Part shown: piece after piece, positions 45,501-64,000 of the stretch | Layout: each line of letters starts with the position of its first letter | Position numbering within the stretch: the first letter of the stretch is position 1 | From: Ginglymostoma cirratum | Taxonomy: Eukaryota | Length of the DNA stretch: 64,000 bases | Assembly: GCA_024137785.1 (NCBI GenBank) | Contig: JAHRHZ010000048.1 | Span: forward strand, 959,221 to 1,023,220 | Direction of reading: 5' to 3' | The notes under the pieces: generated by a model | The model's database searches: none | Told to the model about the DNA's origin: nothing | Seen by the model: only the letters and a program-made list of their open reading frames with translations | Position numbers and translations under genes: made by a program

Positions 45501-48500
45501 AATTAAAAACCAATCACACAGTGTAAAAAGAAAAACAATTTGGGATGTTTTCTATAATTAAGATTGCTATACCTTTTTCCTCATCAAATAACATTTCCAG
45601 CAAATTGGCGTAAGCTGTGAGTTTCTCAAGCTTTGGTAGATGTAAGAAGCCAGTGGGCAGGCAGCTCAGTTGGTTCCTTGACACATCAATTTCCAGAATA
45701 CTGCAGAAGTATAACATAATCCTGTTAACTGAATGTTTGACACTGCACTGAAACATTTTTTCAGCAAATTTTCTACTTGTCAAGACCCTCAGAACCTTGT
45801 ATGTTTTAATAAGATCATCTCTTATTCTTCTAAAACTTTAGTGAATAAAAGCTTAACCTGCTTAGCCATTTTTGATGAGTCAATGCCTTTATCTCAGAAA
45901 TCAGCCTAGCGAATCTCTTTTGAATGGCTTCCAACACCAGTGTATGTTTTTTTGAAAATACAGGACCAAGTCTGTCCACAGTGCTCCAGGTACGGCCTCA
46001 CCAACATCCTGTACAATTATAATAAGAAGTTCCTTCTTTTTAAACTCCGATCCCCAGTAATAAAGGCCAAAATCCATTTGGCTTCTTAATTACTTGCTGA
46101 ACAGCATGGTAACGTTTCATGTTTCACCCCCTGCACTGCACTGTTTGGCGTCAATTATCATTTAAATAATGGTCTAACTTTTGAGTCTTCCAGTCAAAGT
46201 ACACGACCACACACTAAGTTCTATCTGTAAAGTTTCCGCCCATTCACTTCACCTAGCTGCGTCTCCCCTTGCAGATTTCTCATATTCTCATCATAACATG
46301 CCCTCCTATTGTCTGCAGATTCAAATACATTATAATCTGAACCTCTAGATCATTAATATAGATAGAAATCATTGATGCCCTAGAACCAATCCCTGTGGCA
46401 CACCATGAGTTGTGCTTTTCCAACCTAATAAAGACACAGCAATTCTGACTCTGTCAAGCAACTTTCAATCCATGCTCAAACATAATCCCTAATACTATGA
46501 GCGTTTATTTGTGCGCCTAATCTGAAAATTGCAGTTTTCCAATCTGCTGGAATCTTCCTGGAACCTAGTGAGTTCTAAACTATTTCAATGAATGCAGCAG
46601 CCATCTCTGTGGCACCTTATTTATAAAACGCTGGATGAAGACCATCAGGTCCTGGTAACTTCTGTCTCAAGTCCCATTAGTTTGGCAAATACTTTGTCCC
46701 GCATGATCGAGCTTGTTACAAGAACTTTCCTCCCATAAGCACCTTGCTTATCTATTATCTTAAAGATGCTTAAATTATCTGAAATGTTCCTATTCCTATT
46801 ATTAATTTCCCAGTTATAACGTCCAAGGGTCCCATACTCTAGTCCCTTTTGTGATAGTATAAACTTCACAATTTTGATACCTTCATGGATCAAAAGAACC
46901 AGTAATAACTCTTTCTGGAATAAACTGTTTCTCAAGGTGAAAGAGATGGAGAAACTTTTATAAAGGAATTAAGAGGAACATGTCAAATAGCCGTACCTGG
47001 GAAGAAGCAACTTACACAAGCCATTCCCTGGGAGAGAAGAGAAACACTGCTTCATAACCTGCTGCCTCATGACAAACAGACAATTTAAGTCTGCCTGCAG
47101 AAGTCATGTTCTGAAGTAAAGAAGTTAATTGCAAGAAAAGCTGTGTTTTAAACAGGTAGCTAACACCAATTGTAACAAGGAACAGGGGAGCTGCTTCTGA
47201 TACGGCAGTAAGTTACAGACTTGAGGTCTCCAGAAGTATAATCAATGTTGGGAATGAAAGAATCTATTGAATCATCAATTATATCACACCACAAGCTTGA
47301 AAAAGAGTGAAAATTGTATAAGAATCCAACACCAGAACAATCTAGTCGCAGAACTTCTAAGAACAACACTGCATAAGGATCAAACTCTGGACACTTCCAG
47401 TGATAAACACTGTTTGTTGGAATGCTGGCCTGATTCCATTAATTGGATAATAGCCAAGTTGAGTTGCTAGGCTTAACTTGCTTACTTGAGGGGTCTTATT
47501 TTGGTTGCTACATGCAATAAAGTTTAAAATCATTGCTTCAGTACTTTATTGTCTGTGAGATTTCTTAGTAAGTAGCAAGGTAATTTGTGATGATTCACCC
47601 GCAACAGTTTCTTTATACGTGTCAAAAGAACCTCGCACTGTTTGTTTTATATTTCTTACCAATTTACTTTTGTAATCAATTTTCTTCTTCTTTATTAGCC
47701 TTTTGGTCATCTGATGCTGGTTCTTAAAATATTCCCAATTTTCTGGCTTATTACTAGCTTTGTATGCCTTAGTTTTTGATTGGATCCTGTCCTTGACAAC
47801 CTTAGTTAACCATGGATAGTTCATCCTTTTCATCCAGTCCTTCTATTTGACTGGGATAATTTTTTGCTGAGCGTTATGAAATATCTGCTTAATGTCTGCC
47901 ATTGCTTATCCACTGATTTTCCCTTAGTCTATTTTCTCAGACCGCTTCAAACAGCTCTTTCTTCAATTCTCTGTAATTGCCCATATTTAAGTTGTTGACA
48001 CTAGTTTGAGACTCTCGAATTGAATTTGACATTCTACTATATTATGATCACTATCTGCTGGAGTATCCTTAACTATGAGAACTCCTGCCTCATTACTAGA
48101 TCTAAAATAGCCCATTCCTGGGTAGGTTCTGCAAATACTGCTTTAAGAAACACTTCCTGGTGAACACCAGAAATTCATCTTCCATGTCACTCTTGCCCAT
48201 CTTACTGGTCCAGTCAAAATGGAGATTAAAATTACGCATGGCAATTGTAGAGTTCTTCTTCGACAGCTCCGTTATTTCTCGATTTATACTTTGTCCCACA
48301 GTGAAGTAACACTTTTGGGGCCTATAAACAACTCCCACCATTAACTTCTTTCCCTTGCACCTATATCATTACTCATCGTTACACTGAGGCCTTCCTTTAT
48401 TAACACAGCTACCTTACTACCCTTTTATTTTTGCTTCTTCTATTGGAATATCAAATACCCTTGAATATTCAAGTTGCCAGTCTTTAGAGACCATGTCTCT

Positions 48501-51500
48501 AACAGCTGTTAAGTCATATTAATTTATTTCTATCTTGCTACAAATGCTGCAAGCATTCAGAAGAAGAGCCTTAAAGCTTTGATTTTGTACCATTATTCTC
48601 CTCTCTGGGTCTAATTTAAGCTGCACATATATTTGACACACCTCTGTTCTCTTGTTTCTTTATTTTTTTAAAACTTCCCTTCAATTGAACCCTCTCTCCT
48701 CAGTGATTATTTTAAACTCTCCTCTTCACACAGACCTTATGAGTATTCGCAGTTTCATCATGTCAGATTCCCAGCTGCTGCAGTATTTACTAGTTTAGCA
48801 GCCTCTGTTTTCATCTCTTCATTTACCTCAACTTTCTTTAACCCCAAACTCACTGCACACACAAATTAGACTGAACAAGACCCCTGAAATAACGCTTCTG
48901 ATTTGTCACCTACCCTAAGCAAAGTATTTCTTCTGAAGAGGTCACATTGGGCAGGTCCTTCAGCTGATTTGCAGACAAGTTGAGTTTTTTCAGATGCACT
49001 AATCCCCAAGGAATAACCGAAGGAAGGAAAGTGAGACTGTTCCTACACAAATCAAGCTCTGTTATTCGATTGGAAACATCAATGAACCAGTCCAACTCTA
49101 ACCAGGGCAGCTTCAGGCACGACCACTTCAGTGACAGGCCCTGTAGTTTAAACACAAGTAGAAGAGAGCATTACAGTACGGAAGGAGGTCATCTACTCCC
49201 ATTAGTCCCACTCCCATTTTTTCCAGCATATCCCTTGCAAATGTTTATATTCCAAGTATAGATCCAATCACCATTTGAAAGTTATTAATCTGCTTTCACC
49301 ACTTTCACTAGGCAATGCATTCCTGACCACAACACCACAAAATTTAATCAAGAAAAGCCTAACAATGTACAAAATAAATGTTTGTCATCTCACGGCTGAC
49401 TTTTTTTTTGCCTGCAATGTTGTGTCTGTGTCCTCTAGTTACTGGACCTTTATATAAGGTTTGTGCTTCTTTTTAAAAGTACCATGTCACTAACACAGTT
49501 TTCAAGAAATTCTGAACAGATGGTTTCATGTAAGCTTTAGAAATATTGGGGTAATTTTAATCCATTTTCAAAATTAACTGCATCTACGTGTATTAAAAGA
49601 AACCAGGGAAGTGGCCTGAGATAACAAGGTGTAGAGCTGGATGAACACAGCAGGCCAAGCAGCATCAGAGGAGCAGGAAGGCTGACGTTTCGGGCCTAGA
49701 CTCTTCTTCAGAAAGGGAAGTAGTCTTATCACATTTATAAAGAATTGGTGTCAGAAAACCAGTGACCAGCAAACATGTTTCCAACGTTTATGAAGGCAGA
49801 AAGAACAAAGTCCAGGGAGTTGTAGATCCACTAAGCTGACATCCATGCTGGATAAAGCACCACAGATTGCAGCACTGAAGCCGCAAAAAATCTTTCCAAA
49901 AACTGTTGAATGTACACAAAAACAAAAATTGCAATTCAAATTAAGTCAAACTGACATGATTTATTGAATGAATTAATCCTACAAAATAATTTTAATCATA
50001 AACAAAAAGTTTTAAAAACACATCAGATTCATTGTTTTGGAGTAGATCTGTAGCATGGGTTGTGGGTGTTGAGGTTGGTTGGCTCGCCGAGCTGGTTTGT
50101 TGTTCCACAGAGCTGGTTTGTTGTTTTGTTACCGTGCTTGGTAACATCCTCAGTGCAGCCTCTGACGAAGCATCGGTGCATTTTCCCACCTGGTTTTTAA
50201 ACTCTGGGGTCCGTTGCAATGGATTGCCTCACTTCCAGGTTTCCTCTGTAGTGGAACGTATATGGGGTTGAGTTCAATGGGTTTATTAATAGCCTGTTTT
50301 GTGGAGTGCCATGCTTCCAGGAATTCTCGTGCTTGTCTCTGCCTAGCCTGTCCCAGGATCTTGGTGTTGTCCCAGTCAAAGTCGTGGTCCTCCTTGTCCA
50401 TGTGGATTAAGATGAGTCAGTATTGGTCATGTCTTTTTGTAGCCAGTTGGTGTTCATGTACTTTTGTTGTTAGTTTCCTTCCTGTTTGTCCGATGTAGTG
50501 TTTCTCGCAGTCTCTGCAGGGGATCTTGTAGATAACATTGGTCCTGTCCATGGTGGGGAGTGGGTCTTTAGTTCGGGTGAGCACTTGTAGAGTTGATGTG
50601 GACTTATGTGCCACTCTGATGCCCAGCAGTCGTAGAAGTCTTGTGGCGAATTCTGATGTGTTCCTGATGTGGGGTAGTGTGATGAGTGTGTCGGGGCGTG
50701 TAGAGTCTTTCTGATGCTGTTCCCGTAGGCATCTCCTAACCCAGTTCTTTGGATATCCATTATCCTTGAACACTTGGAAGAGGTATTTCTCCTCGTCTTG
50801 GCATAGTTCCGTGTTGCTGCCCTTTTAAATAGTGTTTGCACGTAGCTTCGTTTGTGTGTGCTGGGATGGTTACTATTGAAGTTCAATACCTGGTCTGTGT
50901 GTATGGCTTTCCGGTGTTCTTTCGTTTGCAGTTCCCCATTTGTCTAGCGCTCTACCATGACGACCAGGAGTGGGAGTTGTTTGTTCTTCTTCTCCTCTCT
51001 GGTGAATTTTATTCCGGTGAGGGTGTTGTTTATGAGTTTGTCCGTCTCTTCTAATTTGGTCCGTTTAATGATGACAAAGGTGTCATCTATGTAGCGCATC
51101 CGTAGCTTAGGCTGGATTTGCGGAAGGGCAGTCTTTGCATCACTGCTTCTACTAGGAGTCTGGAGACAGGCGATCCCATGGGTGTCCCGTTGATTTGCTC
51201 GTATGTTTGGCCGTTGAAGGTGAAGTGGGTGGTCAGGCACAGGTCCAGTAGTTTAAGCATTGTGTCCTTGGAGATGGTTTCATTGTGAAGTGTGAAGTAC
51301 AAGCCACCCATCAACAACCCACAAGCCCGGAAAACGGCAGAACAAAACGGCCGCAAGATAGTAAAGGTAATGATAAACGACACATACAACCACCTCCACA
51401 AATACAACAGAGAAATTACGCGCCAAAAAACGTTATTCCAGGAAGCTACCAATCAAGACTGGACAACCGACATGGAACGAGCCATTAACATCAGCCGACA

Positions 51501-54500
51501 GACCACAAAAGCCAAGAAAAGACAGACCCTGCAAGACAAGCTAACCAGACTTACCCACAAAAACAACAACAGAACTGACACATGGATAAGGAACCTCTTC
51601 AACAGGAAACTGACAGGACGCGGAAAAAGCCGTTCTCACCCGGGGACTGAACTACAACTACAGGGACGCCAACAAAACAGAATTGCTAGCTACACTGGAA
51701 GCCACAGTCAAGACCAACAATATCAACAAAGAAACACAACAAACTATAAGATAGACAGTAGTCCCGACACTAACCAGAAAGAGGGAACTCAACGTCCTCA
51801 ACACACAGGAAAGACAAGCCCTGGACACATTAAAGAAGGACAAGAACACCACGATACTACCTGCAGGCTAGGCAGAGACAAGCATGAGAATTCCTGGAAG
51901 CATGGCATTCCACGAAGCATACTATTAAACACATTGAACTCGACCCCATATACATTCCACTACAGAGGAAACCCGGAAGTGAAGCAATCCATTGCAACAG
52001 ACCCCAGAGTTTAAAAACCAGGTGGGAAAACACCCCGACACTTCATCAGAGGCTGCACTGAGGATGTTACCAAGCACGGTAACGAAACATCTGCGGAACA
52101 ACAAACCAGCTCGGCAAGCCAACCAACCTCAAAGTTCATTGTCTTTAGCATCTGATATCACTTTAGCTATGGCATCATCATAAAGATCCCACTCTGGATC
52201 AGGCTTAGTGCTGTTTATTTTAGAATCAATTCTGCAGAGTAAATCATCTACTCCATACATTTAGTTTGATTTGAATTTTTATTGTCACATATACCCAATT
52301 ACAGTGAAAAGTTTTGTTTTGCATGCAGTGCAGGCAGATCATAATATACAAAGATTGAACAGAGCAAGGAATACAATGTTATGACTGCAAAGAAGGTGCA
52401 CAAAAAGCAAGATCAACATTAGATTTGAAGTTTGAGAGGTCCATTCAGAAGTCTAATTACAGTAGGGAAGATGATGTTCTTGAACCTGTTGGTAAGTTTT
52501 TAAGCTTTTTTATCCTCTGCCTGATGGAAGAGATTATAACCGGGCTGGGAGCAGTCTTTGATATTGGCTGCCTTTCCGCGGCAACCAGAAGTGTAGACGG
52601 AGTCAATGGATAGGAGGTTGGCTTGTATGATGGTTTGGGCTGTGTTCACAACTTTCTGTAGTTTCTTATGGTCCTGGGCAGAGCAGTGCCATACCAAGCT
52701 GTGATGCACTCAGATAGAATGCTTTCTATGGTGTATCTGTGAAAGTTGGTGAGGTTTCTTTTGGAAATGCCGAATTTTCCTGAGCTTCCTAAGGAAGAGG
52801 AGGTGTTGTTGTGCCTTCTTGACTGTTGTATCAACGTGGGTGGTCCAGGACAGATTGTTGGTGATTGGCACTCCCGGGAACTTGACACTCTTGACCATCT
52901 CCATCTCAGTTCCATTGATGTAGATAGGGACGTGCCCTCCACCCTGCTTCCTGAAGTCAATGATCAGCTCTTTAGTTTCATTGACTTGGACTCTCTACAT
53001 ATTTGAACTCTGTCATGACAGTTTGTTTTTCTTTATTTATTCATGGGATAGATGTCTTATTTATTTTTCTTTATTTACTCATGGGATAGATGTTTTACCC
53101 ATCTGTAGCCACACAGGGAAGGTTGTGGTGAGCTGCCTTCTTGAACTGCTGCAGTCTGTGAGATGCAGATAGACCAACCATGCTGCTGTGGAAGGAAGAC
53201 TCAAGAACCTTAGAAAGCCAAGATTTTGACCCAGTGACAGTGAAGCAATGCATTTCCAAGTCAACATGAGGAGTGCCTTGGAGGGGAACTTGCAATTGGT
53301 GGCATTCCCATATACCTGCTGCCTTTGACCCTCTAGATGATAGAGGGCAGAATTTAGAATGAACTGTTCACGAACCAAGGCAGTACGTATTGTAGATGGT
53401 ACACACTATGCATCAGTACTGAAGGCAGTGAATATTGAAGGTGGCGCATATGGCACCAATCAAATGAGCTTTGTCTCTTTGGCATTGAGATTTTTGAGTG
53501 TTGTTGGAGCTGCACACATCCAGGAAAGCTGAGAATATTCCATCACACTTTTGGCTTGTGCCTTGTAAGTGGTGAACAAGCTTGGTCCATGGAATTTCAC
53601 CCATGTTGTTGATGCAGCGTAGTGGATATCCACATTTCTGCCACTGTATTATTGCTGGAAACTGGTTAATTTTGATGGATAGTCTTCTGATAGTCTGTTA
53701 CCAATCTCTGGCTTCTGCTGCAATACAAGATGTTTTTGTTCCATATAGCAGCTACACCAACTAGCTGCTGCTCTGAAATCGTTGCTGTACTTTGGTCTCA
53801 ACTGGACCACTTAATTGCATATGCACCCACTGCATTTTTGAGCAATTTTTATCAATTATGTTGGTGCAGGCTCGATGAGCCCAAGGGCCTTTTCTGCACT
53901 ATGAACCTATGGAATTGGTAAAAGCCAAATTTATGAACTTGAGAGGTGATCAGGCAAAAGCAGACTGGATATGTCTACTTGAAAAATGATAAAAATCAGT
54001 TACAAATTAGTAGGAGGAATTTAAAAGTGAGATTCTAAAGGAGCAGAGTAGACAAATCTGCCAAATTCAGAACCCTTAGACATCCAGAAGCATACAATAA
54101 AGCAGAAAAAGAGAGTTTGTGACTGTCACAAAAAATATACTTTTGAAAGCCTAAAAGGAGTGTAAGAAGTACAGGAGTGAAGTAAAAAAGAAATTAGGGA
54201 AGGGGAAGATATGTTGCATTGTCGGGTAAAATCAATGAAAACCCAAAGAGGATTTATCAGCACACTGAGAACAGGAAGATAACTTAAGAAAGGATAGCAC
54301 TCATCAGAGATGTGCATAATAACTTGTATGTGAATGTGAAGGATGTGGACAAGGCTTCTAACGAGTATTTTGCCTGCCTTCCCGAAAGATAGGGATGATA
54401 CAAACTAGTTCAAGAGGAAGATTTTTTATAAAAATGTTTCCTTGTGGGACGTGGGCATCATTGCGTTGTCTGCAATTATTGCCCGCCCCTAGTGTGAAAT

Positions 54501-57500
54501 ATCCAACACAGTAAGCATAATGCAAGAGGAAGTACTGGGGAACAGACATCCCCGAAGGTAATAAGTCACCAGGATTGTATCCCAAGTAAATGCTGGAGAA
54601 ACTCAGCAGATCCAGAAGCATCTATAGAAAGACAAAGTCAACATTTTGATTTGGAACAGTTCTAAAGAAAAGTCATCTGGACTCAAAATGAGAACATTGT
54701 TTTTCTCTCCACAGATAGTGCCAGACTGGAAAGTTTCTCCAGCAATTTGTTTTTATTTCAGATTTGCAGCATCCAAACTGTTATGCATTTACTCAATTGT
54801 ATCCAGGCTGTTAAAGGATGCCAGGGAAGAAATAAAGGATGCATCAAGGATCACTGTCCACTTGTCACTGTATACCGATGAAAAACCTGAGGCTATGAGG
54901 TCCATGAACATTGTTTAAGTAGGGTGTGAGGGACAGGCCATATAATTATAGAAAATTAGTCTGACTTTGGTAGTGAGCAAACTAGTTTGATTGATTCTGA
55001 GACACTGCATAAACTCATTTAGAAAGGCACAGATTAATCATGGTTCTGTTAAGGGATGGTGATGCCAAGAGGAAGTGTCAAAGAGGATTGATCAGAATAA
55101 TACAATGGATGTTGCCTACATGGCCTTCATTTAGGTATGTGGTGAACTGGATCCAAAACTGGATTAGTAACAAGAAGGAAAGGGGTAAAGTCAATGGCCT
55201 TGTTTTTGCAAGTGTTAAGCTGTTTATAGTTGTGTTCTACAGGGCTCAGTTCTGGGTCCTATGCTGTTTGGAATTAAACGTGGGAGGCATGATTTGGAAA
55301 TTTGCAGACAACACAAAAATTAGTCACATAGTTGATAGTGAAGGGGATAGCTGACGACTCCAGAATGGCATCAATGGTTTAACCGAGTGGACGGAAAAAC
55401 AGCTAATGAAATTTAAAGGGCACAAATTTAAGGTGATTGGCACAAAGATTAGAGGGATCATGAGGAAAGACCTTTTTCACCCGGAGGTGTTTGGTGTCTG
55501 GGAATTCATTGCCTGGTTCGGTGGTGGAAGCAGAAACCCTCAACTTGTTGAAAAGACCCTGGATAAAGTGTTGTAGAGTTGCAATGGATCTGGTTCTGGA
55601 GAGTTGAATGAGAATGAGCCGCTAGTTTATTTTTCAGCCAGCACAGACATAATGGGCTGAATAGCCTCTTTTATTCCATAAAATTGGCGGTATTGTAGGC
55701 AGTGAAGAAGGTTAATTTAAGATTACAAGGCGATCTTAATCAATTGGGTCAATGGGCTGAGGAGTGGCAAATAGAGTTTAATTTGGATAAATGCGAGGTA
55801 TTGCATTTTCGTAAAACAAACAAGGACAGGATTTATAAAATTAATGGTAGGGCCATGGGCAATGTTGTAGAATAGACAGCACCGGGGCTTAGATAGATAA
55901 TTCTTTGAAATTTGCATCACAGGTGGTTAAAAAGTCATTTAACACACTTGCTGTCTTCACTCAGACCTTTGAGTATAGGAGTTGCAACGTCATGTTGAGG
56001 TCTTACAGGACGTTGGTGAGGTCTCCTCTGGAGTACTGTGTGTAGCTCTGGTCGCCCTGTTATAGGAGGGATATTATTAAATTGGAGAGGGTTCAGAAAA
56101 GATTTACCAGGATGTTGTTGGGACTGGAGGGTTTGAGATATAAAAATACGCTGGGTAGGCCAGGACTATTTTCACCGGAGAGCAGGAGGTTGAGAGGTGA
56201 CCTGATAGAGATTTATAAAATCATGAGGAGCATAGATAAGGTGAACAGACCCTTTTCCCTAGGGTAGGGGAGTTCAAATTGAGACGAGATATTTTTAAAT
56301 TGAGAGGAGGAATTTTTAAGAAGGAGTGAGGGGCAACTATTTTGTTTTAAAACAGAGTGGTTCATGTGTGGAATGAACTGCCAGTGGAAGTGGTGGGTGC
56401 AGGTACAGTTACAACATTTAAAAGACATTTGGATAAGTACATGAATAGAAAAGGTTTGGAGGGATATGGGCCAAACGCAGACAAGTGGGACTAGTTTAGT
56501 TTGGGAACATGGTTGGCATGGACTTATTGGGCCAAAGGGTCTCTTTCCATGCCGTAGGACTCTAGAACTATAGAGTTCTACAGTGCCTGCACTCATGCCC
56601 CATTTGGTCTTGGGTATCTTCTTCAGGGAAGATTCCTTCTTCCATTCCCACACCAGTTTCCACAAACACGGAATTCTTTTGCTACAGCAGTTACTTGACA
56701 GGTTAGCAAATGTTATGACTTCTAATTTGTAACCTTTGTATTTTCTTTTTACCAGAGGATATATTCCATTCACTACTCATTACACATGGCCAATTCTGTG
56801 TGGTTATGTCTTGGAGTCCCCTCATCTTGGAAACATAGGATCCTCAGGCGATATAAGCTATGTGTTGACTTGTAAAGTAACTAAAACTTGCATTTCTGAG
56901 GTGAGAAATGGAGACTGATTGCAGCACCTCAAAGCAAAAAATGGTGGGGGTCAACTTACACGCTGGGTATAACAGTAAACATAAATTTTGACAGAAAATC
57001 CAGTCTGGGGTCCACAGTCCCCAGGTTGTTGGATTGAGATCACTCCAGAGATGTGAATTCTGCATATCCCAGGCAACTCAGCAAAGTCACTTAGGTGAAT
57101 GTTGGGAAATGGGATGGTCTTAATTTTTAGTCTCTCAGGGAATCAAAGAATATGTTAATTACTTAGGAAAGGCTGAGAAGGCCAAGGTCAGCTGTGTTCA
57201 TATTGGATGGTGGAACAGGCTCAAAGGGACATACAGTCCACTCCTGCTCATAGTATTGTCAAACTGAAGGAGTCAGTGCTCAGAAAGGAGAAGGCAGTGA
57301 CCCGAAATGGGAGCAACTAGTGGCCAACAGCAACCTGTTTTTAGTGCAGTCCTTCACTGCTTGGTTTTGTATTAAGTATTTATACTTAACCTGTTCAAGG
57401 TTGGCAGCGGTCTTTGTATTCAGCTGCTTAAACGGTGTGTCATCCTTGATGCTGTTTTCATGCCAAAGCAATTGGATAAATGAACGCAATGCATAAATAC

Positions 57501-60500
57501 TCATTAGGCATCTTATTAGCAGATGCAAAAGTCAATAATTCAAATTGCTGGAAAAACTCAGCATTTCTGGCTGCATCCAAGGACAGAAAGCAGACTTATT
57601 ATTTCTGAACTGCAGTTCTGAAGAGAGGTCACTGGACCCGAAACATTAACTCTGCTTTCGCTCCACAGATGCTGTCAGACCTGCTGAGCTTTGTGCAGCA
57701 ATTTAAAGTTTTTGGCAAAGATCTGTAGCTCGGGTTGTGGGTGAGGTTGTTGACTTGTTCACCGACCTGGCTGGTTTTCATTCAGACGTTTCGTCACCAT
57801 GCTAGGCGACATCATCAGTGCAGCCTCCGATGAAGTGATGTTATTCTATTCCACTTAGATTTTATACTGTCTAGTCCATTATGGTGAGTGACATCATTTC
57901 CATTTTTGATCTGCATGGGTTTATATATGGGGTTCAATTCTTTATGTTAGTTGCTTGTATTACAGGTGCAGAACCATACCTCTTGGGATTTCTGTGTGGG
58001 TCTATGTTTGGTTTGGGCTGCTATGGTTACATTGTCCCAGTTAAACTGATGGCCTTCATTGTCTGAGTTTACTGATATTAAGAAGAGCTTGTCGCGCCGT
58101 TTTGCTGCTAGTTGGTGTTCATGTATTCTGATGGCCAGTTTTCTTCCTGTCTGTCCAATGTAATGTTTGTGGCAGTCGTTGCATGGTATTTTGTAAACCA
58201 CACTGGTTCTGCATGTTGTAGGTAATGGTGTCTTTAATCCTTGTAAGTGTTTGTCATAGAGTGGCTGTGGGCCACCATGATTCCTAGTGGTCTTAGGAGT
58301 CTTGTTGTCAGTTCCGATACGTTCTTGATGTAGAGCAGTGTGGTCAGTGTGTGAGGGGGTCTGTGTCCTCCTGTTGTTGTGTTTAGTAGGCAACTGCGGA
58401 TGAAGTTGCGGGGATATCCGCTAATAGGAACGATTTTGTATAGGTGCTCTTGCTCTTTCCTGCAAAGTTCTGCAGGGTTGCAGTGTGTCCTGGCCCGTTT
58501 AAATAGTGTCTTAATGCAGCTTTATTTGTGGACTGAAAAAAGCAACCCACATTGATCAAATCCTTAACTTCCACAGCAACCACCTCAATGTCCGCAAACA
58601 AAGCTGCATTAAAACACTATTTAAACGGGCATGGACACACTACAACCCTCCAGAACTTTTCAGGAAAGAGCAAGAGCACCTATACAAAATCTGCCTGATT
58701 AGCAGATATCCCCGCAACTTCATCCGCAGATGCCTACTAAACAGACAACAGCAGGAGAACACAGTACGCCCTAACACACTGGCCACACTGCCCTACATCA
58801 AGAACATATCAGAACTGACAAGACTCCTAAGACCACTAGGAATCACGGTGGCCCACAAGCCCACAGCCACTCTATGACAAACACTTCCAAGGATTAAAGT
58901 CCACATTACCTACAACATGCAGAACCAACGTGGTTTACATAATACCAAGCCACAACTGCCCCACACATTACATTGGACAGACAGGAAGGAAACTGTCCAT
59001 CAGAATACACGAACGTCAACTAATGGCAAAACGGCACGACAAACTCTCCTTATTATCAGCACACTCGGACAACAAAGGCCATCAGTTTAACTAGGACAAG
59101 GTAACCATTGTAGCCCAAGCGAAACATAGACGCACACGGGAATTCCTAGAGGCATGGTTTTCCACAAACAATGCAATCAACAAACACTGGACCCCATATA
59201 CAAGCCCATACAGTTCAAAACGGGAAATGACACCATTCATCATAACGGACCAGACAGTATATAATCTAAGCGGAATAGAATAACATCACTTCATCGGAGG
59301 CTGCACTGATGATATCACCTAGCATGGTGACGAAATGTCTGAACAAAAACAAGTCAGCTCGACAAGCTAGTCAACAACCTTTGTCTAACAATTGCTGTTT
59401 TTGCTTCTGATCTCCAGCATTCCGCAGCGCTTTACGTTTTTTTGCAAAGACACTAATGCATGTTTGAAGCACAGATCTTGGAGACCTTTATTGATGCTGC
59501 CTCAAAACATTTGTACACTGCCTAGTATGTTGGACAACTGCAAAACAGGCATCAGCTATTTCAGTAAATATCAGAAATGTTCAGTTTTCAGTTTTTTGGA
59601 CAGCGTGATTTTTGACAATGCAACTGTGTTGGCTATGCAGCTGCAGTTTCTTGCCCATCTTCAATCCCCTTCGCATACACCATCTACATGTCCCTATGAA
59701 AGTGAATTCATGAATTAGTTCACATAGCAGTGCAGAGGAGCAGAGGTACCCCTCCATTCTTCAAAACACATACATTCCTCTACCCCAAGTCAGGAAATGA
59801 GCTACCTCTCTCTCTGTCTCTCTAATCCCCAGAAACTTGAGTGAGCTGGCACAGTTTGTGGTTCATTGATTTTCTGTAATTGGATGTGTTACAGCCTTTC
59901 TGCAGTCCCTCACTGACCTCTGTAGGCAGAGCAATAACAATGCAGAACTATCCAAAATGCATCAAAAACAAGACGAACGAATTAACATATTTTTTTTTTT
60001 TTTTTACAGCCGATTTAATTAGAATCCCCACTGATCAACGTGTCAAAGTTCATCATCCATTCATGGTCTAGTTACCAGCTGCCAACTGCTGATCAGAAAA
60101 CGCAGCAGTAAAATAGACAACTGGCAAAAAAAAATTAGTTAGTGCTAGATAGAAACTTTTACTCACTGTTTGTCTGTCTGAAACTTCATACTGACTACTT
60201 GGTTCTGTAAACTGTTTTCTCAGCAACCGGTTGCTGAGTTCTGGGTGATCCAGTAAAACATAGGATGAGAAACAGGCTCCATTATCCAGAAGAAACCCCG
60301 CAATCTCCTCATTGCCTGCAACAGAGAGAAGCTCTCTCCAATAAAATAGCTATCATTAAACATACAAACTAACAGGTCAGATGAAAAAGTCTGGAAATAA
60401 ACAAAGAAAGAGATAGAACAGCAACTGGAAATATTTAAAATCAAGAGCGTTTAGGAGAAATATGTTCTGCACAAATACAAGAACACACTAGCCAATAGTG

Positions 60501-62921
60501 AAACTCTCTGGAAATAAATAATTAAGCAAAAGGACGAACAAAAGAAAGAACACAGACACCATAGGATGGGCAAAAGAGGTGATTCAAGGGATTATATAGA
60601 TGTTACAAAGAAAGTAAAAAAAAAAAAACAATCAGGCAGGCAATAAAGAGAAACTATGAAGTTAAATTCTCAAAAGAATATAAAAAGAAACAGTGAAGTA
60701 TTCACAGACAGATAAATAACAAAAGAAGATCAGGGTAGCTATTAGTCCACTAAGAGATAATCTCAAAGAGAATGACAATGTAAAGGTTATTAAATAGTTA
60801 TTTTGCCTCAATACTTGCCAGGAGACTAACAAGTAGGCATTGCATTAGAAGAAAAGATAACAAGAGATATTAAGGAATTTGAGATAGAAAGGGGGAAGAT
60901 AATTGAAAAAGTAATTAAATTTAAAAAACACAGTGAAACAAATAACTGAAGAAACAGCAAGAGAATCTTTTATATTGTTAGAAAAGGAAATAGCGCCAGA
61001 CGACAGCCCATGTGATTCTTAAGATGGGAAACAGAATGAGCCCAGGGAGCTGTAGATCATTTAGACTGATGTTGGAAATAGGAAAGACATTGTAATCCTT
61101 ATTCAAAGATGCAATAGGGAATCTAAAACTATAAGACATAGTCAGCACAAGTTCCAAAAGATGGTGGCTCAGTGGTCAGCACTGCTGCCTCACAGTGCCA
61201 GTGACCTGGGTTCGATTCCACCCCCGGGCGACTGTCTGTGTGGAGTTTGCACATTCTGTGTGGCTTTCCTCCAGGTGCTCCGGTTTCCTCCCACAGTCCA
61301 AAGATGTGCAGGCTAGGTGGATTGGTCATGCTAAATTGCCCCGTAGTGTTCAGGGATGTGTAGATTAGGTGGGTTATAGGGGGATGGGTCTGGGTGGGAT
61401 GCTCTGTGGGTGGGTGTGGACTTGTTGGGCAGAAGGGCCTGTTTCCACACTGTAGGGATTCTATGATCTAAAGAAAAGGTCATGTATGACTAACATTCCT
61501 GAATTATTTGAAGAAATATCAGACAGTAGACAACATTAATGCAATACTTGTGTTATAAATAGTTGCTTGGTGGTACAGAACTAGAGTATTACTATAAAAG
61601 ACCTGTTTTGTTAAACGTTTTTCATCTTGTATTCATTGGGATAATTTACAAGAACAGCAAAGTAAAGGAAAATATACATACCATTCTGAAAAAAAAGTGC
61701 TGAATGATTGGAAAGTGAACTTTGGCTGAGGTGTTTTGTTCTGGAGAATGCACCAGTTAATAATGGCTGACAACTGACTTCCAAGCTGTGTATAAATTTT
61801 AAATCAGGCAGGTTGACTCTAATTGGTCAAGGTGTTGCCACGAGGAATTAACCAGAGAATATCTCCATTATGTGGACAGAAAGAGCATATACACATACTA
61901 TGTGCTTAATCTCAACACAATATTTCAAAATTTGTATTTGACACCAAATAGGTTCGGGTGATGGGAATAAAGGAAGACAGTAACAAAATAGACAAATACA
62001 CTAATAAATCTGCAAAGTTAACAAATTAAGTTCAATATACTGAAGTGCAATTTGATGTATTTTGGCAGGACAAATAAGGAGCTCACGTACTAATTTGAAA
62101 ATGAGAGTAGGTGAGATACAGGACCAAAGGGATCCATGAGCACAGGTGTACAACAGTAACTATACAAATTAATAAGGTCACAACAAACAAGCAAAGCCCG
62201 GACCTTTATTCTACAGAAATAGAATGAAAGAAGTTAGAGAAGTTATTTAAAGTTTTGGCAAAGATCTGTAACTCGGGTTGTGCATAAGATTCTGGACTTG
62301 CTCGCTGAGCTGGCTTGTTTTTGTTCAGATGTTTCGTCACCATGCTAGGTGTCATCAGTGGAGCCTCCGATGAAGCGATGTTATTTTACTCCACTTGGAA
62401 TTTATACTGTCCGGTCAGTTATGGTGAGTGGCGTCATTTCAGGTTTTGATCTGCGTGGGTCTGTGCATGGGGTCCAATTCTATATGTTTGTTGATTGAAG
62501 TATGGGTGGAGAACCGACACGACGAACACTCCTTAATGTTGGTACATTCAGACAACAAAGGCCATTGATTTAACTGGGACAAAGTAACCATAATAGCCCA
62601 AGCCAAACATAGACATGCATGGGAATTCCTAAAGGCATTGTTCTCCACCCATACTTCAAACCAGCTGTATGTTTTGTGGAGTGGGGAGGTGATTCTCCTG
62701 AAGGCCTAGTACACAGGGAGAACATGTGATTGTTCACGTACCTGCCTTCATTGCTGCATACAACGGCTGACCTGTGATGACCGGATGATCCTGTGTCTTC
62801 ACTCCACAACTGTCGGTCTCTGCCTTGTACACGAGTACCAAAAGCCTCACCACATCCAGATGTCCTTTTTCACAGGCTACAGCAAGCATCCAGTTCAGCA
62901 GATCCTTGTCAACACACAAAT
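267..62921 (-). CDS. LRRK1: Leucine-rich repeat serine/threonine kinase 1 (partial gene span; 20 internal coding exons: ANK end, LRR, ROC, COR)
   Basis: The spliced translation tracks vertebrate LRRK1 as I recall it, e.g. [92 protein letters not shown]. All 19 introns are GT-AG and exon phases are mutually compatible. Confidence 0.97.
1513..1545 (-). ncRNA. Minimal hammerhead motif (GAAAC-ATC variant)
   Basis: Minus strand reads ttCTGATGAaGGGtctaggCCCGAAAcATCag. Confidence 0.55.
1578..1977. other. Assembly gap (400 N)
   Basis: Run of N. Confidence 1.
1979..2012 (+). ncRNA. Minimal type-I hammerhead ribozyme motif
   Basis: CTGATGA(1982-88) a GGG tctagg CCC GAAA(2002-05) C GTC/ag: core intact, minimal stem III. 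Confidence 0.7.
3085..4080 (-). mobile_element. Decayed CR1 LINE RT 3' fragments
   Basis: Antisense CR1-type RT sequence (agaccagaactgcatacagtat, tattaagtgtattagtcctgccctg, acaccccaattttggtgtcat). Confidence 0.7.
4085..4325 (-). repeat. Deu-domain (AmnSINE1/SacSINE1-like) SINE relic
   Basis: aacatctcatctgaatgatgtcacttctgacaaagccgcactcccttcag...ctcagaggcaaaagtgctgccaaatgagcc; similar sequence at ~14790-15110. Confidence 0.5.
4347..4486 (-). CDS. LRRK1: LRRK1 exon ([46 protein letters not shown])
   Basis: ORF 4270..4518; cctgtag|T ... CCAG|gtaagg; 140 bp; the preceding intron is 85 bp. Confidence 0.96.
4572..4741 (-). CDS. LRRK1: LRRK1 exon (COR-B loop, [47 protein letters not shown]...GGFL)
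   Basis: ORF 4568..4807; ttaaacag|CTC ... CTGAG|gtaact; 170 bp. Confidence 0.96.
7224..7395 (-). CDS. LRRK1: LRRK1 exon ([12 protein letters not shown]...[24 protein letters not shown])
   Basis: ORF 7218..7460; ctcaccag|T ... CAG|gtatga; 172 bp. Confidence 0.96.
8161..8345 (-). repeat. tRNA-derived HE1/V-SINE-like SINE
   Basis: Minus strand begins ggcagcacagtggctcagtggttagcactgctgcc (A box) and ggttcaattcc (B box); homologous to 35583-35766 and 61162-61468. Confidence 0.8.
8350..12289 (-). mobile_element. Decayed Gypsy/Ty3 LTR retrotransposon (5' LTR, gag, PR, RT, RNase H, IN; 3' truncated)
   Basis: LTR-like ~12067-12289 starting TGTAGT and followed by a TGG PBS-like site; gag-like FDPAIEDW; protease [12 protein letters not shown] (~11060); [17 protein letters not shown] (9978..10451); RNase [11 protein letters not shown]; integrase HQGHPGVSK and [11 protein letters not shown]. 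Order RT-RH-IN; many frameshifts. Confidence 0.9.
8988..9226 (-). mobile_element. CR1 3' end fragment inserted in the Gypsy integrase
   Basis: (TATTGTC)n-like tail at the left end, RT C-terminal sequence; 5-bp direct repeat aactt at 8983-8987 and 9227-9231. Confidence 0.75.
12290..13140 (-). mobile_element. L2-type LINE RT fragment
   Basis: ORF remnants [12 protein letters not shown] and LSWFHCYLS typical of L2-clade RT. Confidence 0.65.
13466..13742 (-). CDS. LRRK1: LRRK1 exon ([25 protein letters not shown]...EIALPITNN)
   Basis: ORF 13462..13764; ctcggcag|CT ... AACAG|gtaatt; 277 bp. Confidence 0.96.
14591..14750 (-). CDS. LRRK1: LRRK1 exon ([23 protein letters not shown]...[15 protein letters not shown])
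   Basis: Hand translation; cattacag|ATA ... ACCG|gtaatt; 160 bp. Confidence 0.94.
17199..17319 (-). CDS. LRRK1: LRRK1 exon ([40 protein letters not shown])
   Basis: Hand translation; ccttacag|TGAG ... TTG|gtaagt; 121 bp. Confidence 0.93.
17311..17590. repeat. Degenerate ~33-36 bp minisatellite containing copies of the exon 17199-17319 splice acceptor
   Basis: gatatctcactgtaag (17311), gatatctcattgtaa (17466), gatatttcaacataa (17499), gatatttcactgtaa (17533), gatatctcactgtgag (17569), separated by purine-rich spacers. Confidence 0.75.
18071..18636 (-). mobile_element. Young 5'-truncated CR1 LINE (RT C-terminus, 3' UTR, (TTCTTTG)n tail)
   Basis: ORF 18157..18636 [16 protein letters not shown]...[13 protein letters not shown] is uninterrupted. 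Confidence 0.92.
18638..19558 (+). mobile_element. Possible solo LTR
   Basis: TGT...ACA termini and AATAAA at ~19436; no coding potential; TSD not established. Confidence 0.35.
19600..21330 (+). mobile_element. Old decayed CR1 LINE (ORF1 end, endonuclease, RT start)
   Basis: Remnants [22 protein letters not shown] and NYRP...[12 protein letters not shown]. Confidence 0.8.
21376..21548 (-). CDS. LRRK1: LRRK1 exon ([19 protein letters not shown]...YPDISCRNL)
   Basis: ORF 21372..21575; gtttaag|GCA ... TTACA|gtgagt; 173 bp; G4 motif THLD. Confidence 0.95.
21838..21925 (+). ncRNA. Short repeat unit with a degenerate hammerhead motif
   Basis: CTGAAGA a GGGT aat ACCC GAAA tgtt; followed by a gctgcctggcctgctgtgttc tail like the other ~95-nt units. 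Confidence 0.5.
22440..25620. mobile_element. Decayed PIF/Harbinger DNA transposon relics (transposase on +, probable Myb/SANT partner on -)
   Basis: ORF 22474..22686 [30 protein letters not shown] resembles HARBI1-type YPGSxHDxFIL...GW; FINRKGFHSxNVQ-like remnants at ~22520 and ~23390. Confidence 0.55.
25690..27190 (+). mobile_element. Decayed CR1/L2-clade LINE RT and 3' UTR
   Basis: [15 protein letters not shown]...[11 protein letters not shown]; gttcctgagggtagtatcctagaccc (QGS-like motif); 3' tail shared with 53030-53580 and 63700-64000. Confidence 0.75.
27375..27539 (-). CDS. LRRK1: LRRK1 exon ([16 protein letters not shown]...WLLNIE)
   Basis: ORF 27198..27695; tttcacag|GTG ... GAG|gtagga; 165 bp; G3 motif WDxGG. 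Confidence 0.96.
28476..28570 (+). ncRNA. ~95-nt PLE-derived unit with a minimal hammerhead motif
   Basis: CTGAAGA(28478-84) a GGG tctagg CCC GAAA C GTC/ag; nearly identical to 1979-2071. Confidence 0.7.
29579..29793 (-). CDS. LRRK1: LRRK1 exon (ROC start with P-loop GPPRQGKST)
   Basis: ORF 29570..29905; cttacag|GC ... AAG|gtacca; 215 bp. Confidence 0.96.
30603..30715 (-). CDS. LRRK1: LRRK1 exon ([37 protein letters not shown])
   Basis: Hand translation; tttcgtcag|C ... GAAG|gtaaat; 113 bp. Confidence 0.93.
31137..31266 (-). CDS. LRRK1: LRRK1 exon ([43 protein letters not shown])
   Basis: ORF 31133..31408; ttattttcag|TT ... TCAAA|gtaagt; 130 bp; an in-frame alternative AG lies 9 nt downstream. 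Confidence 0.9.
34900..34967 (-). CDS. LRRK1: LRRK1 small exon ([22 protein letters not shown])
   Basis: ctgtgtgcag|G ... ACAG|gtgaaa; 68 bp; restores phase between its neighbours; resembles human NEDGLKTKRIAFFTT. Confidence 0.85.
35583..35766 (+). repeat. HE1/V-SINE-like SINE (5'-truncated)
   Basis: ggtgctccggtttccttccacagtccaaagatgtgcaggctaggtggattggccatgctaaattgccc...tgtagggattctatg. Confidence 0.8.
36883..36995 (-). CDS. LRRK1: LRRK1 exon ([41 protein letters not shown])
   Basis: Hand translation; gtgacag|AAC ... GGAAA|gtaagt; 113 bp. Confidence 0.9.
38303..38440 (-). CDS. LRRK1: LRRK1 exon ([49 protein letters not shown])
   Basis: Hand translation; atttctag|AAA ... AAG|gtattt; 138 bp, phase 0-0. 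Confidence 0.9.
40471..43557 (+). mobile_element. Young 5'-truncated CR1 LINE (ORF1 esterase C-terminus, ORF2, 3' UTR, (ATGTTCT)n tail)
   Basis: The 5' end encodes [15 protein letters not shown] (SGNH block V); ORF2 of 965 aa; tail taatgttctatgttcta. Confidence 0.95.
40573..43470 (+). CDS. CR1 ORF2: APE-like endonuclease and reverse transcriptase (open frame, likely catalytically impaired)
   Basis: YFNARSI, SETW, GGGVAL, YRPP, SDHN; [25 protein letters not shown]. The annotated start codon is TTG; the true start may be the ATG at 40657. Confidence 0.9.
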   Translation: MGGLKLVQLGDGNLTCSSSVKEVESSEVMNKVSRSQECTGRQKAGLKCVYFNARSIRNKVGDLAAWAGTWDFDVVAISETWIKQGQEWLLQVPGFRCFSKIREDGKRGGGVALLVKDSITVVERMFDEDSSTEVVWAEVRNRKGEVTLLGVFYRPPKSSRDVEERIAKMILDRSERNRVVVMGDFTFPNIDWKRYSSSTLDGSVFVQCVQEGFLTQYVDRPTRGDATLDLVLGNEPGQVLHLEVGEHFGDSDHNSVTFTLAMERDRYIPQGKSHSWAKGNYEAIRQDLGCIGWGRKLQGLGTIGMWSSFREQLLRVLDKYVPVRQGGNGRVREPWFTKEVESLVKRKKEAYVKMKYEGSVRALESYKLARKELKRELRRARRGHDKSLAGRIKENSKAFERYVRKKTMTRVRLGPVKDSSGKLCVESEEIGEALSEYFSSVFTHEKDNVVEENTEIQAIRLDGIDVHEEEVLAILESLRKSPGLDGIYPRILWEAREEIAEPLALILLSSLSTGIVPEDWRIANVVALFKKGSRDNPGNYRPVSLTSVVGKVLERIIRDRICNHRERNNLIRDSQHGFVKGRLCLTNLIEFFEKVTKQVDEGKAVDVVYMNFSKAFDKVPHGRLLQKIQRHGIKGDLAVWIRNWLGVRRHRVVVDGKCSSWSSVTSGVLQGSVLGPLLFVIFINDLDEGIEGWVSKFADDTKVGGLLDSAEGCCRLQRDIDKMQSWAERWQMEFNAEKCEVIHFGRSNRNTEYWANGKILGSVEEQRDLGVHVHRSLKVATQVDRVVKKAYGVLGFIGRGIEFRSREVMLQLYETLVRPHLEYCVQFWSPHYQKDMEALERVQRRFTRMLPGMEGRSYEERLRDLRLFSLERRRLRGDLIETYKMIRGLDRVDSESLFPQMVTASTTGHSFKFRGDRYRTDVRGRFFTQRVVRAWNALPAAVVNSPTLRAFTWSLDKHMDDNGIV
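45320..45483 (-). CDS. LRRK1: LRRK1 exon ([23 protein letters not shown]...PWACPL)
   Basis: ORF 45275..45502; cctccag|CA ... TTG|gtaagc; 164 bp; the preceding intron is only 89 bp. Confidence 0.94.
45573..45700 (-). CDS. LRRK1: LRRK1 exon ([30 protein letters not shown]...DEEK)
   Basis: ORF 45514..45783; ttctgcag|T ... AAAG|gtatag; 128 bp. Confidence 0.93.
45790..48600 (-). mobile_element. Old decayed CR1 LINE pieces
   Basis: Remnants VGVVYRP..., [12 protein letters not shown]...; RT 3' region at 45790-46450. Confidence 0.75.
46850..47606 (+). mobile_element. Putative solo LTR inserted in an old CR1
   Basis: TG...CA termini, AATAAA at ~47516; the CR1 sequence resumes on both sides. Confidence 0.45.
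48914..49140 (-). CDS. LRRK1: LRRK1 exon (LRR start, [22 protein letters not shown]...EEILCL)
   Basis: ORF 48910..49155; acceptor actacag|GG, donor TTAGG|gtaggt; 227 bp. Confidence 0.93.
49618..49713 (-). ncRNA. Solo ~96-nt PLE-derived unit with a minimal hammerhead motif, flanked by a TSD
   Basis: Minus strand reads ttCTGAAGAaGAGtctaggCCCGAAACGTCag; direct repeat agggaagtggcct (49605-17) / agggaagtagtct (49714-26). Confidence 0.65.
50036..52134. mobile_element. Penelope-like element, inverted bipartite insertion (RT and GIY-YIG on -, N-terminal ORF plus 3' end on +)
   Basis: [40 protein letters not shown] (GIY-YIG); 51866-52130 is the reverse complement of 50070-50348; direct repeat ttcattgt at 50028-35 and 52135-42. 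Confidence 0.92.
52053..52096 (+). ncRNA. Type-I hammerhead ribozyme motif in the PLE pLTR
   Basis: ctgca CTGAGGA t GTTACC aagcac GGTAAC GAAA C ATC/ tgcgg: 5-bp stem I, perfect 6-bp stem II. Confidence 0.75.
52260..52985 (-). mobile_element. Rex1/Babar-type LINE 3' fragment
   Basis: [39 protein letters not shown]...[15 protein letters not shown]; tail gtgacaataaaaattcaaatcaaa. Confidence 0.8.
53920..56570 (+). mobile_element. Decayed CR1 LINE fragments
   Basis: [16 protein letters not shown]; [16 protein letters not shown]...[13 protein letters not shown]. Confidence 0.8.
57781..57825 (-). ncRNA. Type-I hammerhead ribozyme motif, intact core, LRRK1 sense strand
   Basis: Minus strand reads tgca CTGATGA t GTCGCC tagcat GGTGAC GAAA C GTC/ tgaa. 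Confidence 0.78.
59301..59343 (+). ncRNA. Hammerhead motif (CpG-decayed stem III)
   Basis: ctgca CTGATGA t ATCACC tagcat GGTGAC GAAA T GTC/ tgaa. Confidence 0.65.
60167..60315 (-). CDS. LRRK1: LRRK1 exon ([36 protein letters not shown]...QT)
   Basis: Acceptor ctgttgcag|GC, donor ACA|gtgagt; 149 bp; translated by hand; not shown in this frame in the ORF track. Confidence 0.9.
61162..61468 (+). repeat. Near full-length HE1/V-SINE-like SINE
   Basis: tggtggctcagtggtcagcactgctgcc (A box), ggttcgattcc (B box), V-like core, tail gggattctatgatcta; inserted in an old CR1. Confidence 0.82.
62247..62659. mobile_element. Short Penelope-like insertion with an internal 5' inversion and a degenerate hammerhead (62325-62364, -)
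   Basis: Its terminus ttaaagttttggcaaagatctgta matches 57704; 62516-62659 is a + strand GIY-YIG C-terminal segment; 19-bp inverted overlap at 62495-62513 / 62641-62659. Confidence 0.8.
62742..62921 (-). CDS. LRRK1: LRRK1 exon (ankyrin region, [29 protein letters not shown]...LYAAMKAG)
   Basis: Acceptor tttttatag|AT, donor GCAG|gtacgt; 180 bp, phase 1-1; ankyrin motif [13 protein letters not shown]. Confidence 0.9.
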
Positions 62922-63699
62922 CTATAAAAAATATATTTTGTAGTTATGGAATTATCAACTTTACACAGACTCCAGAATGTTCACTTTCCATTTTAATTCT
63001 AGAATCACTGAAAATGCAGGGCACAATGAGGCCATTCAGCCTAGACTTTCCCAGTGGTAGTTCTTCAATTGAAGCTGTCTACTCAAATTCAGTTCTTGTC
63101 TTTTCTACAAGCTGTTTTACAAACACTTACCTAATTTCTTTTTATTTGACATTTGTTACCCAGAGAGTCACCAGAGAGGGGAGAAAGTAAAATCTACCGT
63201 GTGACTTTACCATCATCATGGTGATGGGCTAGGAGATGGGAGGGCTTGAAAAATGGCAGGTGTTTGGAGGGGAACTCATGTGTATTCTCGCAGCCTTAGC
63301 ATATTACCAGCAGAAGGAATGTTAGAGTTCAGATGCCCAGAGTGGGCAGCCAAATGAACAACTTCAATGCTAATTATGTGCCATGTCCTATGTCTGTGGT
63401 CACTTTGCCCATGTCAGAAGGATCCACGTCCATGGCTGCCTTTGCATGGCACCTCTTCCCTCATCCCAATCACCAAGGCCTGGCTTCCACTAACATTGCT
63501 CATCTTTCCTCAAGGCCACCTCACCACTGAGATCTCTCTGGAGCTGCAGCTTCAACTCCAACATTGGCCACTGCAAGCAGTTGAACTGATAAAGAAATTT
63601 TGATCGAAGAGAAGTCTTGGACTTGAAATGCTAACTCTACTTCTCTCTCCACAGATGCCAGACCTGGCAAGTTTGTTCAGCATTTCTATTTTTTTCTAA

Positions 63700-64000
63700 T
63701 TCCCTGTGAAACGTGGGCATAGCAGGCTGGCCAGCACTGACTGCCCATCCCTTGCTGCCCCTGAGAAGGAGCTGGTGAGCTGCTTTCTTGAACTGTTGTA
63801 GACTGCTTGTTGTTGGTTGACCCACAATACCTTGAGGAAAGGAATTCCAGGATTTTGACCCAGCGACAGTGAAGGAATGGCGATGTACTTCCAAGTCAGG
63901 ATGGTGAGTGGCTTGGAGGAAAACTTACAGGCGGTGGCATTTCTATGTATCTGCCTTTCCTTCTAAATGGAAGCTTGTTGTGGGTTTGGAAGGTTCTGTC
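63700..64000 (-). mobile_element. LINE 3' UTR fragment (same family as the 25690-27190 tail)
   Basis: Shares ttcaagaaagcagctcaccag...gggcagcaagggatgggcag with 53095-53295. Confidence 0.6.

Follow-up and report, generated by a model that had tools for sequence, protein, structure and literature searches.

An intron of the LRRK1 gene of Ginglymostoma cirratum harbours a minimal type I hammerhead motif that is, in all likelihood, the hammerhead of the terminal repeat in a fold-back Penelope-like element (PLE), old and broken, and that is likely inactive, as it is predicted to be covered by the antisense arm of the same element. The motif was studied within a window of 64,000 nucleotides (contig JAHRHZ010000048.1, positions 959,221 to 1,023,220), and all coordinates below refer to this stretch. 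It is an ordinary further copy of a kind of motif already described and, as it stands, is of little consequence.

The motif and its host intron

The motif occupies 57785–57818 on the minus strand, sense to LRRK1, and consists of the core, an extra unpaired U (U9b), stem II, GAAA, an ACGU palindrome and a GUC triplet. The initial annotation had given its sequence between 57825 and 57781 and described the core as complete, and direct reading of the strand agrees: CUGAUGA (57818–57812) is followed by the unpaired U (57811), by GUCGCC (57810–57805), the loop UAGCAU and GGUGAC (57798–57793), and then by GAAA (57792–57789), C (57788), GUC (57787–57785) and UGAA (57784–57781). All the positions of the type I core are present (C3, U4, G5, A6, N7, G8, A9, G12, A13, A14, A15.1, U16.1 and H17), and C17 of the cleavage triplet falls at 57785, as had been proposed. 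Stem II does have the 6-bp length first attributed to it, with the refinement that one pair is a G.U pair, private to the left arm of the element, and that the extra U lies between A9 and the G10.1-C11.1 pair that opens the stem. Stem III is replaced by the palindromic ACGU (57789–57786). Stem I (57781–57822) is formed by UGCA (57822–57819) and UGAA (57784–57781), which give an A-U pair, a C-G pair, a G.A mismatch and a U-A pair; three of the four positions are paired, with two contiguous pairs. Within 57835–57812 (minus strand), a UUCAUC upstream of the core is strongly retained across the family, and base pairing between it and CUGAUGA is predicted; this may give the pLTR RNA an off state of its own.

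A loose version of the core (CTGANGA followed by GAAA) has 18 matches in the window, versus 7.3 ± 2.7 in shuffled sequences, none of 100 shuffles reaching 18. The RF00163 model had been put forward as a check, and Rfam scans do not detect the motif: no hammerhead was matched in the whole window at the gathering score or in 48000–64000 at E ≤ 10, as expected for a motif devoid of stem III. An Rfam match to MIR2630 was rejected, as it covers the hairpin turn only and scores far below the gathering threshold.

The intron holding the element (49141–60166, minus strand) is 11,026 nt long, in phase 0, with GT-AG ends (GT at 60166–60165, AG at 49142–49141). The exon upstream of it (60167–60315, minus strand) matches residues 207–245 of human LRRK1 (8e05_A), and the exon at its other end (48922–49140, minus strand) matches residues 257–328 of the same protein. 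Splice ends and exon matches thus bear out the earlier statement that the motif is transcribed in the sense orientation within an 11-kb LRRK1 intron. A literature search for LRRK1 together with ribozymes found nothing related. When a polyA RNA run was aligned to 55800–58400, 1,881 of the 1,899 reads fitted only partly and came from other copies of the repeat; depth on the unique intron flank (56583–57539) was next to none, and ends did not pile up among the reads from other copies. From a second RNA run, no reads aligned to 55800–58400.

The element carrying the motif

An inverted repeat (57744–59380) with a centre of 56 nt holds the motif, which is close to the outward extremity of its left arm. 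The element as a whole spans about 57704–59378, and its arms are 87% alike over 802 columns. The left arm (57704–58533, minus strand) comprises a broken RT-thumb/linker/GIY-YIG end, followed by the pLTR with the hammerhead and then by a tail. The right arm (58534–59378, plus strand) is antisense in the LRRK1 transcript and is transcribed first; it carries a damaged mate hammerhead (59306–59339, plus strand), in which G10.1 has changed to A and C15.2 to T, and the complement of which is the predicted silencing strand. The one-sided tail, of about 40 nt (57704–57743, minus strand), lies outside the inverted repeat and is also found on the copy at 62245–62285; its limits are set by the self-match of the palindrome, which stops at 57744, and by the match to the copy at 62245–62515, which extends to 57701. 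A decayed 15-bp target-site duplication, alike at 12 of 15 positions, flanks the element (57689–57703 and 59379–59393, plus strand).

In both arms, a Penelope-like ORF survives as a broken C-terminal end, including what is left of GIY-YIG, and is followed by the terminal repeat with the hammerhead. The GIY-YIG remnant of the left arm has a Pfam E value of 0.019, below the curated cutoff, and its translation shows a Cys pair between GIY and YIG, as in the endonuclease of EN+ PLEs. Only thumb-like remnants of the RT domain, devoid of any Pfam match, are present in this copy. The CX2-5CxxC zinc finger of the RT-EN linker, the absence of which is reported to mark the Penelope/Poseidon clade as opposed to Neptune (PMC8557442), was not found in three-frame translations of either arm, both arms being broken. 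Inverted partners within 1.5 kb are common among relatives (17 of 29, 9 of 29 and 18 of 30 sampled loci). EN+ PLE insertions, which are inverted and 5'-truncated, are described with the same head-to-head arms, target duplication and tail of 30–40 bp at one end, and the element in LRRK1 does not differ substantially from them (PMC3846280; PMC8557442). In Poseidon of Anolis carolinensis (PAc), stem II is reported to begin with an ATG, the same layout as here, whereas the LRRK1-intron copy is 5'-truncated and folded back, has stops and frameshifts in both arms, and lacks the RT core (PMC11167929). Core, pLTR position and fold-back anatomy all agree with the original assignment of a PLE-type minimal type I hammerhead lying within a PLE palindrome.

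The element was inserted into an older small fold-back repeat (57540–57703, plus strand), itself bearing a decayed hammerhead (57618–57649, plus strand), making the 15-bp duplication; the remainder of the split repeat lies at about 59379–59430. In the alignment to 55800–58400, loose-end letters behind 57692 resemble the right flank. Insertion into a hammerhead-bearing mini-repeat agrees with a report that PLEs tend to enter PLE sequence or land next to it (PMC6765202).

Predicted silencing by the antisense arm

The initial annotation had raised two possibilities for this motif, namely nicking of the nascent pre-mRNA and silencing by the opposite arm of the palindrome. Silencing is what folding predicts, with the reservation that the models assume equilibrium and leave out ADAR editing, helicases and proteins. 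In the fold of 59500–57600, all the bases of 57828–57777 except C15.2 pair with the other arm, with probabilities of 0.95–1.0. The duplex between the arms has a predicted energy of −100.5 kcal/mol, versus −6.0 for the monomer hammerhead fold and −13.3 for the best fold of the segment on its own, and the monomer hammerhead would form with a probability of about 6e-7 even in isolation, with the other arm absent. Similarly, in five of five successive stretches of the arm, predicted pairing with the antisense arm is much stronger than self-pairing. A polymerase transcribing the LRRK1 strand would copy the right, antisense arm first, then the 56-nt loop and then the sense arm, such that a hairpin of about 800 bp would close progressively, taking in the hammerhead, as the sense arm emerged. 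This predicted pairing with the antisense arm during synthesis makes it likely that the motif is inactive in the pre-mRNA. Even if freed, the motif, being devoid of stem III, would need a second molecule to provide the ACGU helix as well as a stem I strand that matches.

No partner with a matching stem I was found among the hammerhead copies of the window. The only other sense copy bearing ACGUC in the intron (49711–49684) was tried as a heterodimer partner and rejected, as its 5' flank cannot pair with UGAA and there is a mismatch in stem II. The double hammerhead formed by two copies of the motif has a predicted energy of −12.7 kcal/mol, versus −34.8 for the best two-copy fold, a gap of about 22 kcal/mol.

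These predictions bear directly on the idea that LRRK1 pre-mRNA is nicked at a low rate by a trans-dimer formed with another transcript of the same family, possibly aided by a PLE protein, before closure of the hairpin or after editing. The core, the G10.1-C11.1 pair and the ACGU are intact, polyA RNA contains other copies of the family, and PLE hammerheads have been reported to cut as dimers or with the help of protein (PMC4209133; PMC11167929; PMC6765202). Such cleavage nevertheless appears improbable, given a double hammerhead that is less stable than the best two-copy fold and much less so than the arm duplex, a stem I with only two contiguous pairs, and the incompatibility of the sole other intronic ACGUC sense copy. 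With so rare a predicted monomer fold, no matching partner in the window and a core whose survival is explained by neutral decay (see below), the proposed nicking is unsupported.

What is reported of related ribozymes points in both directions. Minimal hammerheads (min-HHRs) are described as showing no cleavage as monomers and low cleavage as dimers (PMC4209133; low activity is also reported in PMC6765202). The hammerhead of Anolis Poseidon is reported to have cut only with the element's protein and to be dispensable for insertion in vitro, and no RNA-seq ends were found at its site (PMC11167929). Engineered fast hammerheads in fish introns are reported to lower mRNA levels (PMC11856399), and tandem retrozymes to be depleted from Xenopus introns (bioRxiv 10.64898/2026.07.22.740005), so active intronic hammerheads can matter and an effect is possible in principle. 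A more elaborate proposal, and a still less probable one, is that of a conditional ribozyme shut by the antisense arm, opened by A-to-I editing or by PLE protein, and cutting LRRK1 RNA with a second transcript of the family; the tens of thousands of intact motifs in the genome would then form a transposon-responsive layer of pre-mRNA cleavage, shaping the orientation of elements in introns. If cutting were true, it would be the first PLE minimal hammerhead shown to act on a host pre-mRNA, and, with more than 34,000 core-intact motifs retrieved by just two exact patterns, a test across the genome would be easy.

Survival of the core in a decaying repeat

A DNA similarity search for relatives of the motif gave 4,578 candidates, 40 of which were scored. 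For a comparison of decay, 29 loci were selected by the flank at 57860–58150, with the ribozyme excluded, giving 41 alignment rows, 40 of them distinct. The core is intact in 18 of the 41 rows, and core, ACGU and stem II are all intact in three. Changed CpG cells make up 34% in the motif versus 30% in the flank (p = 0.33). Outside CpGs, 18 of 443 cells have changed in the core (4.1%) versus 411 of 6534 in the flank (6.3%; p = 0.065), which may be taken as a weak hint of constraint, the flank figure also carrying subfamily differences. Of 401 sites, 34 carry changes private to the left arm and 31 changes private to the right arm, and the chance of 16 key sites remaining unchanged at the rate of the left arm is 0.24; the chance of at least one intact motif among the window's five copies of this family group is about 0.32. 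Set against chance survival, the left arm retains both CpGs of the motif (singly retained in 14 and 17 of 40 relatives) but only six of 15 CpGs overall. With decay rates near those of the flank and ordinary odds of survival, neutral decay suffices to explain the intact core. A single intact survivor is unremarkable, and with thousands of copies decaying, this core was probably spared by chance.

Across subfamilies, pair 3 of stem II shows covariation (U-A in 17, C-G in seven, U-G in five and A-G in one of 30 loci picked blind to the stem), although the independent events are few and the stem also codes for the start of the ORF. This covariation points to selection during the mobility of the element, not on the copy in LRRK1. 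The weakness of stem I, which was correctly noted as short and mismatched, is not damage to this copy; it is inherited by the subfamily, since it is common to both arms and the same pattern of two pairs, a mismatch and a pair is found in 20 of 40 relatives. The sister subfamily has a G-C at pair 3 of stem I in 15 of 30 loci. That a subfamily mismatched at this pair reached thousands of copies suggests either that cleavage was less needed or that a C.A pair was tolerated. Contigs of a related species align to the left flank in the intron, and contigs of one run match the unique flank without differences; none of them spans the insertion junction.

Conserved type I hammerheads are known from the introns of amniote RECK, CTCL and DTNB, where they also lie in sense orientation (PMC6155905), and with its intact core the LRRK1 motif might be regarded as a domesticated, conserved ribozyme regulating its host gene in the manner of the RECK intron hammerhead. 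This is the least credible of the readings considered here, and extremely improbable. The RECK, CTCL and DTNB hammerheads are described as canonical, few and conserved across species (PMC6155905), and those of the RECK type have canonical helices and tertiary contacts, of which the LRRK1-intron motif has none; unlike them, it is minimal, one of thousands, situated in a decaying repeat and predicted to be covered by an antisense arm. In addition, its arm decays at the same rate as the mate arm, stem II carries a private change, and the odds of survival are ordinary (about 0.32, as given above).

Abundance and comparison with described hammerheads

Min-HHRs from the pLTRs of PLEs (Cervera and De la Pena 2014, PMC4209133) are described as having the same core, an extra nucleotide at 9/10.1 (typically found after A9 in these motifs), a G10.1-C11.1 pair and a long stem II. 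They also share the palindromic 15.2–16.2 segment, a short stem I, dispersal in thousands of copies and pairs on opposite strands; the copy in LRRK1 differs in its weaker stem I (two pairs, a mismatch and one pair), versus 4–5 bp in the published motifs (PMC4209133).

The exact 34-mer of the motif has 131 matches genome-wide, a pattern with paired stem II and G10.1-C11.1 retrieves 806 copies, and a pattern with the core and an 18-nt spacer retrieves 2,759 core-intact copies. A second, shorter hammerhead family is far more abundant, with 31,579 exact core-intact copies, or one per 138 kb. The reversed controls gave 0 matches for all four. The copies of the second family exceed the approximately 9,000 min-HHRs reported for Xenopus tropicalis (PMC4209133) and would be good material for comparing sense with antisense copies in introns. 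No paper on shark hammerheads was found among the literature matches listed, and the supplements of the papers cited here may list chondrichthyan motifs.

Neighbouring repeats

At least 10 hammerhead-like remnants are present in the window. Two hammerheads of the second, shorter family are intact (1982–2009 and 28478–28505, plus strand, antisense to LRRK1), and further copies of this family lie at 49684–49711 and 1516–1543 (minus strand). The same LRRK1 intron contains another fold-back PLE (50020–52140), longer and belonging to a sister subfamily, in which RT-like motifs and remnants are visible by eye; both of its hammerheads are damaged (50153–50120, minus strand; 52058–52091, plus strand).

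Inverted PLE copies (62245–62648 and 59029–59381) flank the LRRK1 exon at 60167–60315, the right arm of the element having an inverted match of 79% over 233 nt to the copy at 62286–62648 in the upstream intron, and an additional arm match of 76–81% over 137 nt to the same copy. This arrangement could favour skipping or circularisation of the exon. The insertion might accordingly affect LRRK1 through its long double-stranded hairpin and not through catalysis, via A-to-I editing, small RNAs or cross-exon pairing that alters splicing or circularises 60167–60315. A hairpin of about 800 bp at 87% and the inverted copies flanking the exon speak for such an effect, which we nonetheless consider unlikely, if less so than nicking, as pairing within the element should outcompete pairing across the exon.

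Elsewhere in the window, an assembly gap (Ns, 1578–1977) lies between two inverted hammerhead repeats, and remnants resembling the pol gene of an LTR retrotransposon are present in an LRRK1 intron at about 8350–11900 (minus strand), where broken protease, RT, RNase H and integrase-like pieces can be made out by eye.
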